A stretch of DNA of 64,000 bases, from NCBI RefSeq assembly GCF_013167455.1, contig NZ_CP038328.1; one strand, 5' to 3'. The DNA is from Escherichia coli O157:H7 (GTDB lineage Bacteria; Pseudomonadota; Gammaproteobacteria; Enterobacterales; Enterobacteriaceae). Shown here in pieces: positions 10,644 to 40,388 of the stretch (positions are counted from its first letter, which is position 1; each line of letters opens with the position of its first letter). A model generated the notes under the pieces. It was not told the DNA's origin and did not search any database. It was given only the letters and a program-made list of their open reading frames with translations. Made by a program: the position numbers and the translations under genes.

Positions 10644-11291
10644 TTATTCGTTAGTGGCAGGATTACGAAGCGTGGGGCACAGGAGATACATCTCCAGTAA
10701 GATGGCGACGTAATCGCGGGCTTCTTTTTTAAGATCAAAAGATTGCGGGGCAAAGAGCCAGTTTTCCATCAGGCCGGAAATATAGCCGCGCATAATAATT
10801 GCTGCCCGACGCGTCATTAAATCCGCAGGCAACATTTTCGCTTCAATACAATGTTTTAACGTTTGTTCTATACGGTCATAACTTTCCAAACAGAGATTAC
10901 GTTGTGCCTGTTGCACAACAGCCATTTCTCCGACAAATTCGCATTTGTGGAATATAATCTCCATCAATAATCGACGCCGTTCTTCTGTCACCGTGGATTC
11001 AAGAACATGAATTAATATCTCTCTTAATACTGAGAGTGGATCGCTAGGGAATTTTGCCTGATATTCAAGCTCTAGTTCACCAATATTGGATTCTGATAGT
11101 TCCCAGATCTCACTGAACAAATCCGACTTGTCTTTAAAATGCCAGTAGATTGCACCGCGCGTAACGCCAGCTGCTTTTGCAATCTCACCCAGCGAGGTGG
11201 ATGATACCCCCTGCTGTGAGAAAAGACGTAGAGCCACATCGAGGATGTGTTGGCGCGTTTCTTGCGCTTCTTGTTTGGTTTTTCGTGCCAT
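10644..11291 (-). CDS. acrR: TetR-family repressor AcrR, 215 aa
   Basis: [52 protein letters not shown] (TetR helix-turn-helix); divergent from acrAB. Confidence 0.96.
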
Positions 11292-11319
11292 ATGTTCGTG
11301 AATTTACAGGCGTTAGATT

Positions 11320-11343
11320 TACATACATTTGTGAATGTATGTA
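11320..11343. promoter_or_regulatory. AcrR operator, perfect 24-bp palindrome TACATACATTTGTGAATGTATGTA in the acrR-acrA divergent promoter region
   Basis: Palindrome read directly from the sequence, between the acrR start (11291) and the acrA start (11433). Confidence 0.85.
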
Positions 11344-11432
11344 CCATAGCACGACGATAATATAAACGCAGCAATGGGTTTATTAACTTTTGACCATTGA
11401 CCAATTTGAAATCGGACACTCGAGGTTTACAT

Positions 11433-12626
11433 ATGAACAAAAACAGAGGGTTTACGCCTCTGGCGGTCGTTCTGATGCTCTCAGGCAGCTTAGCCCTAAC
11501 AGGATGTGACGACAAACAGGCCCAACAAGGTGGCCAGCAGATGCCCGCCGTTGGCGTAGTAACAGTCAAAACTGAACCTCTGCAGATCACAACCGAGCTT
11601 CCGGGTCGCACCAGTGCCTACCGGATCGCAGAAGTTCGTCCTCAAGTTAGCGGGATTATCCTGAAGCGTAATTTCAAAGAAGGTAGCGACATCGAAGCAG
11701 GTGTCTCTCTCTATCAGATTGATCCTGCGACCTATCAGGCGACATACGACAGTGCGAAAGGTGATCTGGCGAAAGCCCAGGCTGCAGCCAATATCGCGCA
11801 ATTGACGGTGAATCGTTATCAGAAACTGCTCGGTACTCAGTACATCAGTAAGCAAGAGTACGATCAGGCTCTGGCTGATGCGCAACAGGCGAATGCTGCG
11901 GTAACTGCGGCGAAAGCTGCCGTTGAAACTGCGCGGATCAATCTGGCTTACACCAAAGTCACCTCTCCGATTAGCGGTCGCATTGGTAAGTCGAACGTGA
12001 CGGAAGGCGCATTGGTACAGAACGGTCAGGCGACTGCGCTGGCAACCGTGCAGCAACTTGATCCGATCTACGTTGATGTGACCCAGTCCAGCAACGACTT
12101 CCTGCGCCTGAAACAGGAACTGGCGAATGGCACGCTGAAACAAGAGAACGGCAAAGCCAAAGTGTCGCTGATCACCAGTGACGGCATTAAGTTCCCGCAG
12201 GACGGTACGCTGGAATTCTCTGACGTTACCGTTGATCAGACCACTGGGTCTATCACCCTACGCGCTATCTTCCCGAACCCGGATCACACTCTGCTGCCGG
12301 GTATGTTCGTGCGCGCACGTCTGGAAGAAGGGCTTAATCCAAACGCTATTTTAGTCCCGCAACAGGGCGTAACCCGTACGCCGCGTGGCGATGCCACCGT
12401 ACTGGTGGTTGGCGCGGATGACAAAGTGGAAACCCGTCCGATCGTTGCAAGCCAGGCTATTGGCGATAAGTGGCTGGTGACAGAAGGTCTGAAAGCAGGC
12501 GATCGCGTAGTAATAAGTGGGCTGCAGAAAGTGCGTCCTGGTGTCCAGGTAAAAGCACAAGAAGTTACCGCTGATAATAACCAGCAAGCCGCAAGCGGTG
12601 CTCAGCCTGAACAGTCCAAGTCTTAA
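11433..12626 (+). CDS. acrA: multidrug efflux membrane fusion lipoprotein AcrA, 397 aa
   Basis: Internal start MNKNRGFTPLAVVLMLSGSLALTGCDD (lipobox) within the 409-aa ORF. Confidence 0.96.
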   Translation: MNKNRGFTPLAVVLMLSGSLALTGCDDKQAQQGGQQMPAVGVVTVKTEPLQITTELPGRTSAYRIAEVRPQVSGIILKRNFKEGSDIEAGVSLYQIDPATYQATYDSAKGDLAKAQAAANIAQLTVNRYQKLLGTQYISKQEYDQALADAQQANAAVTAAKAAVETARINLAYTKVTSPISGRIGKSNVTEGALVQNGQATALATVQQLDPIYVDVTQSSNDFLRLKQELANGTLKQENGKAKVSLITSDGIKFPQDGTLEFSDVTVDQTTGSITLRAIFPNPDHTLLPGMFVRARLEEGLNPNAILVPQQGVTRTPRGDATVLVVGADDKVETRPIVASQAIGDKWLVTEGLKAGDRVVISGLQKVRPGVQVKAQEVTADNNQQAASGAQPEQSKS

Positions 12627-12645: not shown

Positions 12646-15798
<3,153 letters not shown>

Positions 15799-24636: not shown

Positions 24637-28183
<3,547 letters not shown>

Positions 28184-35822: not shown

Positions 35823-38177
35823 CTATTTTGCAGTCACAACCTGCATGCCAGACGGTTCATTTTGCAGCGCCAGAGTCAGAACTTCCTCAATGCGCTTCAC
35901 AGGATGAATGTCCAGATCGGCAATTACGTTGTCAGGAATCTCTTCCAGATCGCGTTTATTTTCGAACGGAATTAACACTGTTTTAATCCCGCCGCGATGC
36001 GCTGCCAGTAGTTTTTCTTTCAAACCACCGATCGGCAGTACCTGACCACGCAGAGTGATCTCACCGGTCATTGCCACATCGGCACGAACCGGGTTACCGG
36101 TCAGGCAAGAAACCAGCGCGGTGCACATAGCAATACCGGCACTCGGACCATCTTTCGGCGTCGCACCTTCCGGTACGTGGACGTGGATGTCACGTTTTTC
36201 GTAAAAATCAGGGTTGATCCCCAGTTTTTCCGCACGCGCGCGAACCACCGTTAACGCAGCCTGAATAGACTCCTGCATCACTTCGCCGAGCGAACCGGTA
36301 TAGGTCAGTTTGCCTTTACCCGGAACACATGCGGTTTCAATGGTCAGCAAGTCACCGCCCACTTCCGTCCACGCCAGACCGGTTACCTGACCGACACGGT
36401 TTTCGTTATCAGCGCGACCATAGTCGAAACGCTGAACACCAAGGTAGTCATGCAGGTTGTCGCCGTTAATTTCGATATGTTTTAATGACTTATCGAGCAG
36501 TAACTGCTTAACCGCTTTACGGCACAGCTTGGAGATTTCACGCTCCAGACCACGCACGCCCGCCTCACGGGTGTAGTAACGAATAATGCCGATAATGGCG
36601 CTATCGTCGACGGTCAGCTCACCTTTTTTCAGTGCATTACGTTCAATCTGCTTCGGCAGCAGGTGACGTTTGGCGATGTTCAGTTTTTCATCTTCGGTAT
36701 AACCGGAGAGGCGAATCACTTCCATACGATCCAGCAGTGGTGCCGGAATGTTCATGGAGTTCGACGTCGCGACAAACATCACGTCGCTGAGATCGTAATC
36801 CACTTCCAGGTAGTGATCGCTGAAGGCCACGTTCTGCTCTGGATCCAGCACTTCAAGCAGTGCGGAAGCCGGATCGCCACGCATGTCAGAAGACATTTTG
36901 TCGATCTCATCGAGCAGGAACAGCGGGTTTTTAACGCCCACTTTCGCCATTTTCTGGATCAATTTACCCGGCATAGAACCGATGTAAGTACGGCGGTGAC
37001 CACGGATTTCCGCTTCATCACGCACGCCGCCCAGCGCCATACGGACATATTTACGCCCGGTGGCTTTGGCAATGGACTGACCCAGGGAGGTTTTACCTAC
37101 CCCCGGCGGCCCTACCAGGCAAAGGATCGGTCCCTTGATTTTGTTGACACGGCTTTGAACCGCAAGATACTCAAGGATGCGATCTTTCACGCGCTCCAGA
37201 CCATAATGGTCGGTATTAAGGATTTCCTGCGCCTGACGCAGGTCTTTTTTGACCTTGCTGCGCGCATTCCACGGTACCTGTACCATCCAGTCGATATAAC
37301 CACGCACTACGGTCGCTTCTGCCGACATCGGAGACATCATTTTCAGCTTCTGCAACTCTGCTTCCGCTTTCTCTTTTGCCTCTTTCGGCATCTTCGCCGC
37401 GTCGATTTTGCGCTTCAGGGCTTCGTTTTCGTCCGGCGCGTCGTCCATCTCACCGAGTTCTTTCTGAATAGCTTTCATTTGCTCGTTCAGATAGTACTCA
37501 CGCTGGGATTTCTCCATCTGCTTTTTAACGCGGTTGCGAATGCGTTTCTCAACCTGCAGCAGATCGATTTCCGATTCCATCATTGCCATCAGATATTCCA
37601 GACGTTCGTTAACGTCGGACATCTCCAGAACGGACTGTTTGTCAGCCAGTTTCAGCGGCATATGTGCAGCAATGGTATCCGCCAGACGCGCCGGATCGTC
37701 GATGCTATTCAACGACGTCAGCACTTCTGGTGGGATTTTTTTGTTCAGCTTGATGTAGCCTTCGAACTGGCTGATTGCAGTACGCACCAGCACTTCCTGT
37801 TCTCGCTCATCAATGGTCGGCGACTCCAGATACTCCGCCTTCGCAGAAAAGTGTTCGCCATTGTCAGAGAGCGCAGAAATACGCGCGCGCTGTAACCCCT
37901 CGACCAGCACTTTGACGGTGCCGTCAGGCAGTTTCAGCATCTGCAATATAGAGGCCACGGTCCCGACGGTGAAAAGATCGTTTACACCCGGCTCATCCGT
38001 TGAAGCTTCTTTCTGCGCGACCAGCATAATTTTTTTATCATGGTCCATCGCCGCTTCCAGACAACGGATAGATTTTTCCCGCCCGACAAATAAGGGGATG
38101 ACCATGTGCGGATAAACCACCACATCGCGCAGCGGCAATACGGGGATTTCAATGCGTTCAGAACGCTCAGGATTCAT
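35823..38177 (-). CDS. lon: ATP-dependent Lon protease, 784 aa
   Basis: Internal start [44 protein letters not shown]..; Walker [10 protein letters not shown]; catalytic Ser in PKDGPSAG. Confidence 0.97.
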
Positions 38178-38364: not shown

Positions 38365-39639
38365 TTATTCACCAGATGCCTGTTGCGCTTCCGGCTTGCC
38401 ATAAATCAGCAACGGTTTGCTTTGACCATCAATTACCGACTCGTCGATAACCACTTTTTCGACATCTTCCATGGACGGCAGATCGTACATGGTATCGAGC
38501 AGTGCGGCTTCTACGATGGAACGCAGGCCACGGGCACCGGTTTTACGCGCCATCGCTTTCTTAGCGATAGCATCCAGCGCCTCGTCACGGAATTCCAGAT
38601 CCACGCCTTCCAGATTAAACAGCGCCTGATACTGCTTGGTCAGGGCGTTTTTCGGCTCTTTGAGGATCTGAATCAGAGCTTCTTCGCTCAGTTCATTCAA
38701 CGTTGCGACAACCGGCAGACGACCAATAAACTCAGGGATAAGACCAAACTTGATCAGATCTTCCGGTTCAACCTGCGCCAGCAGCTCGCCTTCGCTTGCT
38801 TTGTCGGACTTCGCTTTTACCGTCGCGCCAAAACCAATGCCGGAGCCGGTTTCTACACGATGGGAAATCACTTTATCCAGACCGGCAAACGCACCGCCAC
38901 AAATAAACAGGATCTTAGAGGTATCAACCTGCAAGAATTCCTGCTGCGGATGTTTACGTCCACCTTGCGGTGGAACAGCAGCTACCGTACCTTCGATCAG
39001 TTTCAACAGTGCCTGCTGTACGCCTTCACCGGAAACGTCACGGGTAATAGACGGGTTGTCTGACTTACGAGAAATCTTGTCGATTTCATCGATGTAGACA
39101 ATCCCGCGCTGCGCTTTCTGTACGTCGTAATCGCACTTTTGCAACAGCTTCTGAATGATGTTTTCAACGTCTTCGCCCACATAACCGGCTTCGGTCAGCG
39201 TGGTTGCGTCGGCCATGGTGAACGGGACGTCCAGCAGGCGCGCCAGCGTTTCAGCCAGCAGCGTTTTACCGGAACCGGTCGGACCGATCAGCAGAATGTT
39301 ACTTTTGCCCAACTCGACGCCATTGCTGGTATCGCCGTTGCGCAGACGTTTGTAGTGGTTGTATACCGCGACCGCCAGCACTTTTTTCGCCTGTTCCTGG
39401 CCGATAACGTAATCGTCCAGGTGGTTACGAATTTCATGCGGCGTCGGTAGCGCACTGCGTTCACGATGCGGTGCAACTTCTTTAATCTCTTCGCGAATGA
39501 TGTCGTTACATAAATCAACACATTCGTCGCAGATATACACGGATGGACCGGCAATCAGCTTGCGCACTTCATGCTGGCTTTTGCCGCAAAAAGAGCAATA
39601 CAGCAATTTGCCTGAGCCATCTTTGCGTTTATCTGTCAT
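38365..39639 (-). CDS. clpX: ATP-dependent Clp protease ATP-binding subunit ClpX, 424 aa
   Basis: [41 protein letters not shown] (zinc-binding domain); Walker A GPTGSGKT. Confidence 0.97.
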
Positions 39640-39764
39640 GGGTCAAAACCTCTTCTTTGTTCTTTGTGCCGCACACGACGACGCAAATGCCATTCTCAGG
39701 CGCAAGCCGCTTACAGCGTTGTGCCGCCCTGGATAAGTATAGCGGCACAGTTGCGCCTCTGGCA

Positions 39765-40388
39765 TCAATTACGATGGGTCAGAATCGAATCGACCAGACC
39801 GTATTCCACCGCTTCAGGGGCGGAAAGGAAGCGATCGCGCTCGGTATCACGTTCAATCTGTTCTAATGATTGACCCGTATGAAGCGCCATAAGTTCATTC
39901 ATACGCCCTTTAACTTTCAGAATTTCACGGGCATGAATTTCGATATCGGTCGCCTGGCCCTGGTAGCCGCCCAACGGTTGGTGAATCATCACGCGCGAAT
40001 TCGGCAGGCAAAAACGTTTACCTTTTGCCCCTGCGGTCAGCAAGAAAGCGCCCATCGAGGCCGCCTGGCCCATACAGATGGTGCTGACATCAGGCTTGAT
40101 AAACTGCATGGTGTCATAGATAGACATCCCGGCAGTGATCACCCCGCCTGGGGAGTTAATGTACAGATAGATATCTTTTTCTGGGTTTTCTGCTTCCAGG
40201 AACAGCATCTGAGCCACAATCAGGTTAGCCATATGGTCTTCAACCTGGCCAGTCAGAAAAATGACGCGTTCCTTAAGTAGACGAGAATAGATATCAAAAG
40301 AGCGCTCACCACGTGAGGTCTGTTCAATGACCATCGGCACCAGCGCCATATGGGGTGCAAAGTTATCTCGTTCGCCGCTGTATGACAT
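39765..40388 (-). CDS. clpP: ATP-dependent Clp protease proteolytic subunit ClpP, 207 aa
   Basis: [45 protein letters not shown].. Confidence 0.97.

Follow-up and report, generated by a model that had tools for sequence, protein, structure and literature searches.

The closest described counterpart of the locus analyzed here is the acrR-acrA control region of Escherichia coli K-12 MG1655 (b0464-b0463). Its AcrR-binding site is reportedly to be credited to Su, Rutherford and Yu in 2007, and its mar/sox/rob box (marbox) is said to go back to Martin et al. in 1999. In the literature, the AcrR site is described as "two 10-bp inverted repeats separated by 4 bp"; the duplex used in a published EMSA with purified AcrR had the sequence of this K-12 site, which is identical to positions 11320-11343 of the DNA discussed below, and the authors, writing in mSphere, reported multiple shifted bands (PMC10597343). 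The marbox has been located in the first 20 nt of acrR, and according to K-12 genetics the box must be kept if MarA, SoxS and Rob are to activate acrAB at a high level (PMC11642870). An analogous -142 to -161 placement of the box has been given for acrEF by comparison with acrAB. In Salmonella and Klebsiella, RamA also uses the marbox, and in the Salmonella acrAB leader, where CsrA binding has been shown, TCGGA serves as a secondary CsrA-binding motif (PMC5727465).

Among other repressors of this kind, TtgR of the ttgABC system (Pseudomonas putida), MtrR, NalD, and SmeT belong to the same TetR_N plus TetR_C_2 fold family, and TtgR is the next-best solved relative of AcrR (E = 1e-44). TtgR-type systems follow the same logic, in which a divergent repressor overlaps the pump promoter, but they do so with different proteins and operators of their own; the TtgR site presumably contains an TACTTACATT-like half-site similar to the AcrR arms. 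A further comparison is offered by QacR-IR1 of Staphylococcus aureus, which is read by a pair of dimers and which, like the AcrR site, is a palindrome unusually long for a TetR protein. The AcrR arms are built from repeated TACA/TGTA tetramers (TACA-TACA-TT / AA-TGTA-TGTA), and such repeats could accommodate a pair of dimers, as in QacR. A search of the solved structures gave no co-crystal of AcrR with DNA.

The stretch of DNA analyzed here (64,000 nt, hereafter the window) is identical at 64,000/64,000 positions to E. coli FRIK1989 (NZ_CP111101.1 2,691,380-2,755,379; Bos taurus, USA), and two of its bases differ from O157:H7 ECP19-598. Compared with K-12 MG1655, the locus has the same gene order (mscK-acrR<>acrA-acrB), the same 141-bp intergenic region, the same 24-bp operator, the same 20-bp marbox, and the same AcrA protein. 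It differs by AcrR G83S and six synonymous changes in acrR and by V129I and S1043N in AcrB, all of which are natural polymorphisms. We read the locus, with high confidence, as the canonical, unmutated acrR-acrAB control region of E. coli in a bovine strain of the O157:H7 lineage. The features are collected in Table 1.

Table 1. Features of the acrR-acrA region in window coordinates; A1 is an alignment of 74 Enterobacterales sequences that runs from the operator through acrA codon 6.
Feature	Position	Strand	Description
acrR	10644-11291	-	TetR-family local repressor, 215 aa; A of the ATG start codon at 11291
mar/sox/rob box ATGGCACGAAAAACCAAACA	11272-11291	-	overlaps acrR codons 1-7, starts with the acrR start codon
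acrR-acrA intergenic gap	11292-11432		141 bp
Spacer between acrR start codon and operator	11292-11319		28 bp; sequence poorly conserved, length fixed
Predicted acrA -35 TTTACA	11318-11323	+	overlaps left operator arm
AcrR operator TACATACATTTGTGAATGTATGTA	11320-11343	n/a	arms TACATACATT (11320-11329) and AATGTATGTA (11334-11343), spacer TGTG
Predicted acrA -10 TACCAT	11342-11347	+	overlaps right operator arm
Nearly invariant block ACGCAGCAATGGGTTT	11366-11381		A1 columns C50, A51, G52, A54, T56, G57, G58 invariant
TCGGA	11412-11416	+	A1 columns G95, A97 invariant
GAGG, acrA Shine-Dalgarno	11421-11424	+	8 nt before ATG; A1 columns G103, G105, G106 invariant
acrA	11433-12626	+	periplasmic adaptor, 397 aa; ATG at 11433
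acrB	12649-15798	+	RND permease, 1049 aa

The 24-bp element between the two genes is the AcrR operator, an already known element, and it agrees letter for letter with the published AcrR-binding site (PMC10597343, PMC9769551). A repeat finder returned two arms of 10 nt each, 100% complementary and separated by a gap of 4 nt. Because the central TGTG is not self-complementary, 10/12 symmetric pairs match; the original prediction of a perfect 24-bp palindrome was thus right in position and in sequence, while the perfection has to give way to a 10+4+10 inverted repeat. The pattern TACATACATTNNNNAATGTATGTA has a single match in the 64-kb window with up to 3 mismatches allowed, against an expected number of 0.00 from 100 dinucleotide-preserving shuffles. 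From the operator it is 28 bp to the ATG of acrR and 89 bp to that of acrA, and the region that had been designated the divergent control region of acrR and acrA coincides exactly with the 141-bp gap between both start codons.

Within E. coli, the whole gap shows 0 differences from K-12 MG1655, in agreement with the earlier claim that the operator is intact. Among the 5,423 complete E. coli genomes carrying the gap, 5,419 have it at an identity of at least 99%, and it was 100% identical at 38 of 40 evenly spaced ranks. The divergence from K-12 amounts to 1.08% of bases in acrR and 1.58% in mscK. Conservation in the gap exceeds that of the genes on either side, and for this reason any intergenic change deserves attention. 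An 881-bp query around the region matched four genomes at 100% and differed at a single base from Sakai, EDL933, and further strains of O157:H7.

Several observations on individual genomes may be added. Codon 76 of acrR (GAA) carries at 11064 a synonymous C>T relative to Sakai, EDL933, and K-12; this change is common to only four complete genomes (ECP19-598, 17B6-2, G5295, and FRIK1989) and marks a small O157:H7 subclade. A disrupted region is exemplified by E. coli Z1323CEC0008 (chicken; L126), one genome among the 5,423, which has an IS481-family insertion in the acrR-acrA gap. The element, with a 6-bp target duplication, TTAGAT (window equivalent 11313-11318), is located 1-2 bp upstream of the operator, and the insertion shifts the marbox by about 1.1 kb from the acrA promoter. 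Two of the 5,423 records matching the acrR-acrA region are annotated as plasmids, not chromosomes.

A consensus scan predicted an acrA core promoter, TTTACA-18-TACCAT (9/12), which brackets the operator. T11318 and T11319, two bases outside the arms used for selection, are conserved in other Enterobacterales. In the 74 aligned Enterobacterales sequences, no variation occurs at positions 11345, 11347, 11348, and 11351, and hardly any at 11346, 11349, and 11350. Taken together, the scan and the conservation predict that the operator overlaps the acrAB core promoter, and the exact positions of promoter and transcription start are to be read as predictions from these two sources. On the reverse strand, TGcTATGGT (11351-11343) is a possible extended -10 for acrR. 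Other minus-strand calls, TTAATA-16/18-TATATT/TATTAT (11386-11357), were not relied on as an acrR promoter because their -35 falls in the least conserved stretch.

A transcription start about 79 nt upstream of acrA, probably the position given in a database, would fit 11354; the Cappable-seq supplements contained no match for coordinates near it. Kim et al. (2012) listed two acrA starts inside acrR and antisense to it, with 47 and 61 reads, and no intergenic acrA start appears in their table (PMC3415461, Table S1). The listed positions, NC_000913.2 485064 and 485202, correspond to 11212 and 11074 of the window, and transcripts from them would cross both the marbox and the operator. The consensus scan gave no promoter above threshold at these positions inside acrR. 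For the start at 11212, a candidate read by hand, TTGCAA-17-GATGAT, scored 8/12, below the scan threshold, and was not retained.

This geometry suggests how the repressor would work. An AcrR homodimer of the TetR family would read both 10-nt arms of the 10+4+10 repeat, and since the predicted core promoter brackets the operator, bound AcrR would keep RNA polymerase off acrAB. As the divergent promoter of acrR has to overlap these same ~60 bp, AcrR would also limit its own synthesis; autoregulation through occlusion of the acrR promoter is, on this reasoning, very likely. A ligand at the C-terminal domain would cause AcrR's release.

Activation would enter from the other side of the spacer. It had been suggested to search upstream of the acrA -35 for a mar/sox box, and the box is indeed present, but inside acrR and just outside the intergenic stretch (11292-11432) on which the suggestion was centered. 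The asymmetric 20-bp consensus of the class I marbox, AYnGCACnnWnnRYYAAAYn, has one perfect match in 64 kb, ATGGCACGAAAAACCAAAC(A), with 0 mismatches on the minus strand at 11273-11291, or 11272-11291 for all 20 positions, where 0.06 matches are expected. Counted upstream from the acrA ATG, the box spans nt 142-161; it faces backward with respect to acrA, with its end 26 bp before the predicted acrA -35 (11318). MarA, SoxS, or Rob, each as a monomer, would bind this backward box to activate the operon, with a spacer of fixed length (28 bp) between marbox and operator. The spacer measures 27-29 bp in nearly all Enterobacterales, and a fixed length would be a requirement if marbox and core promoter need constant phasing.

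The box also leaves its trace in the coding sequence of the repressor. At acrR codons 2-6 (GCA CGA AAA ACC AAA), the identical codon is kept in 94-100% of 89 distinct orthologous 5' ends, while AcrR residues that are invariant further downstream drift synonymously in the same 89 sequences (identical codon at A9 in 52%, T12 in 31%, R13 in 21%, A20 in 33%, and F24 in 38%). These frozen synonymous sites lend support to the marbox, which appears to be a better explanation than a constraint on translation initiation, given the 20-bp consensus match and the published genetics; the latter constraint could contribute.

Downstream of the promoter, the acrA leader carries a conserved TCGGA of the CsrA type and the GAGG ribosome-binding site. 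Action of CsrA at the E. coli TCGGA is suggested by analogy with Salmonella, although the primary AAGGA of the Salmonella leader is not obvious in E. coli. The block ACGCAGCAATGGGTTT is kept from E. coli to Yersinia, Serratia, Pantoea, and Erwinia and outconserves much of the acrA leader, and it is followed by a less conserved stretch of the alignment (11381-11394). It may be part of the acrA leader or, judged by the TTGCTG on its reverse strand (a candidate acrR -35), part of the acrR promoter. What is conserved in the leader appears to be the primary sequence and not an RNA structure. Conserved RNA structure was itself considered for this leader and dropped: the single-sequence fold was unremarkable (z = -0.86), and RNAalifold found zero pairs with compensatory change across the 74 sequences. 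A further layer of control, in which either G83S subtly retunes the ligand response of AcrR or ACGCAGCAATGGGTTT is the site of an uncharacterised regulator or the true acrR promoter, is considered unlikely.

The acrR reading frame of 215 codons is intact, as anticipated for a full-length repressor. Pfam assigns TetR_N (PF00440) to residues 16-62 of AcrR (E = 1e-19) and the MAATS-type TetR_C_2 (PF08361) to residues 84-202 (E = 2e-53). All three proteins exceed their NCBIfam equivalog cut-offs, with 418.9 bits for AcrR (NF007949; cut-off 271), 885 bits for AcrA (cut-off 765), and 2419 bits for AcrB (cut-off 2150). AcrA is identical to the K-12 protein. The repressor is identical at 214/215 positions to the crystallised E. 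coli AcrR (PDB 2QOP/3BCG); relative to K-12 MG1655, its gene has 7 base differences, namely 6 synonymous changes and G83S, and residues 1-62 are unchanged. The reading frame and the K-12 alignment contained no frameshift, stop, IS insertion, or HTH substitution of AcrR, such as L34Q, A41D, or M1I, which are literature examples of inactivating substitutions. On the side of the permease, AcrB differs from K-12 by V129I and S1043N.

The one change in the repressor requires closer consideration. Codon 83 is GGC in K-12 and AGC here (base 11045), and the serine is absent from PDB 2QOP as well. The original prediction had named substitutions relative to wild type, in the operator or in AcrR, as findings that would speak against it. 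The operator has none; AcrR has G83S, so that on a literal reading the objection applies to the protein. The AcrR protein of the window is, however, identical to that of O157:H7 Sakai, and the distribution of the allele gives the comparison with K-12 a different meaning. In 5,426 complete genomes, the Ser83 allele was counted in 137 and the Gly83 allele in 5,279, by means of 55-nt probes with the SNP at the center so that each 28-nt megablast seed spans it, and the listed Ser rows all look O157:H7. By these counts, G83S is an allele of the O157:H7 lineage, fixed there, and does not point to a resistance mutation. No mention of AcrR G83S was found in a literature search.

It could nevertheless be argued that the locus is structurally intact while G83S weakens repression or alters ligand-induced release, so that acrAB regulation in this lineage differs from that of K-12. 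The substitution is a real non-synonymous difference both from K-12 and from the crystallised protein, it is limited to 137/5,426 genomes, with all sampled rows O157:H7-like, and residue 83 immediately precedes the ligand-binding C-terminal domain, whose Pfam start is residue 84. Against this, an AlphaFold model (52 orthologues as input, mean pLDDT 91.5) puts the residue in a predicted loop (81-84) that joins helices 55-80 and 85-102, at a distance from the HTH helices 34-41 and 45-51. In 102 AcrR homologues with the same operator arms, column 83 contains D (52), G (22), P, N, H, F, S (2), and E; it ranks among the most variable columns of AcrR, and Ser is found in two other species. Moreover, a successful lineage has fixed the allele, and there is no sign that it goes with resistance. 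Finally, acrAB and acrR are still inducible in O157:H7, where bile co-induces acrA, acrB, and acrR by about 2-3 fold (PMC3769235), as would be expected of a functioning divergent control region. An altered regulation through G83S is therefore regarded as quite improbable, and the model and the variability of the column suggest that the change is very probably neutral. That repression is unimpaired, as first proposed, is a plausible and the most reasonable reading of a sequence that cannot prove it by itself.

The canonical control region can also be followed across species. One genome per species was scanned for the two arms in exact form, whatever the 4 nt between them, which yielded at least 120 loci. 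Among the matches listed, 115/120 have the start of an AcrR homologue near the repeat, and 107/120 have an AcrA homologue on its opposite flank. Because the loci were selected by exact arms, the conservation of the arms across them is by construction; the independent evidence that they provide consists of genomic context, conservation of the flanks, and co-conservation of the protein. In nearly all Enterobacterales, 27-29 bp separate the arms from the start codon of an AcrR orthologue, and acrA is found on the opposite side. Salmonella, Citrobacter, Klebsiella, Enterobacter, Serratia, Yersinia, Pantoea, and Erwinia share with the window the arms, their distance of 27-29 bp to the acrR ATG, an operator-to-acrA distance of 123-139 nt (mostly 129-135), the same -10-like CCATAGCA, TCGGA, and GAGG. 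They differ in the 4-nt spacer, which varies, and in 11292-11317 and 11381-11394, which are not conserved. Outside this order, Aeromonas and beta-proteobacteria (Acidovorax, Ottowia, Comamonas, Polaromonas, and Silvimonas) keep the arms beside AcrR homologues of only 35-45% identity. The spacer reads TGTG, TATG, CGCG, TGCG, CTTG, CATG, and others, and the recognition helix of AcrR (T44-F52) is almost invariant across the homologues. Operator and reading head thus appear, within loci chosen by their arms, far more conserved than the remaining protein.

Five exact-arm matches had no AcrR neighbor. Four of these lie beside genes for a glycosyltransferase, MsrA, an ankyrin protein, and an oxidoreductase, and they probably arose by chance; the fifth, at a truncated locus end, adjoins an MFP gene. 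In the loci from Aeromonas and beta-proteobacteria (L004, L011, L013, L017-L019, L031, L047, L068, L077, and others), the exact arms TACATACATT/AATGTATGTA stand next to divergent pairs of a TetR repressor and an RND adaptor.

These comparisons bear on the question of whether the repeat is read as DNA or as RNA. Its 10-bp arms would form a hairpin in any crossing transcript, as drawn by RNAalifold, and since the published acrA-directed starts are located upstream, within acrR, the repeat may be crossed by some transcripts (PMC3415461). The repeat might then be an RNA hairpin in the 5' leader of acrR or a bidirectional terminator or attenuator instead of a protein operator. Such a helix would, however, stand without any compensatory change, with 10/10 pairs invariant, and the repeat is neither followed by a T-tract nor called by a terminator scan. 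The spacer varies freely, while the arms are letter-perfect even beside AcrR homologues of 35% identity with an invariant recognition helix, a pattern that fits protein-DNA contact, and direct binding of AcrR has been published (PMC10597343). An RNA role in place of the operator is, on this evidence, hardly credible. That the palindrome is a chance AT-rich inverted repeat without function is effectively refuted: the four exact-arm matches with unrelated neighbors in other genomes show that chance occurrences exist in large databases, but shuffles of the window gave an expectation of zero even at 3 mismatches, 115/120 of the matches listed adjoin AcrR homologues, and the sequence is the experimentally bound site (PMC10597343).

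The reading of the repeat as the AcrR operator within a canonical control region leaves the wider regulatory setting to be considered. Further inputs to acrAB output come from MarA, SoxS, and Rob at the marbox, from Lon, and from CsrA, and the Lon protease degrades MarA and SoxS. The lon gene (35823-38177) lies 24 kb from acrAB, with clpX and clpP following at 38365-40388. The Lon input into acrAB looks intact, the product being a full-length endopeptidase La by annotation in the identical genome.

Two other loci of the window may be mentioned. In mdlA (minus strand), codon 523 at 26617 reads CCG (Pro) here and ACG (Thr) in O157:H7 ECP19-598; a 55-nt probe centered on this base found the allele in 1/5,426 complete E. 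coli genomes, FRIK1989. MdlA T523P is thus private and non-conservative, and by its position in this SmdA-family multidrug ABC exporter (590 aa) it probably falls in the ATPase part. The second difference from ECP19-598, at 27845, is synonymous. The gene espY3 (60009-61580), which encodes a type III secretion effector with pentapeptide repeats, is found between yajO and pgpA in an otherwise core-genome context.

Nothing at this locus represents new biology, and neither operator, marbox, predicted promoter, nor leader departs from wild type. Since AcrAB-TolC overproduction and multidrug or solvent tolerance frequently arise through lesions in acrR or its operator, a wild-type control region in this strain is a useful negative result for resistance surveillance. 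A comparison with K-12 only would mislabel G83S as a "mutation", though it is a lineage allele. The location of the marbox inside acrR has a consequence of its own: because the box covers the beginning of the gene, a deletion or truncation of acrR that removes codons 1-7 is not equivalent to a point mutant.
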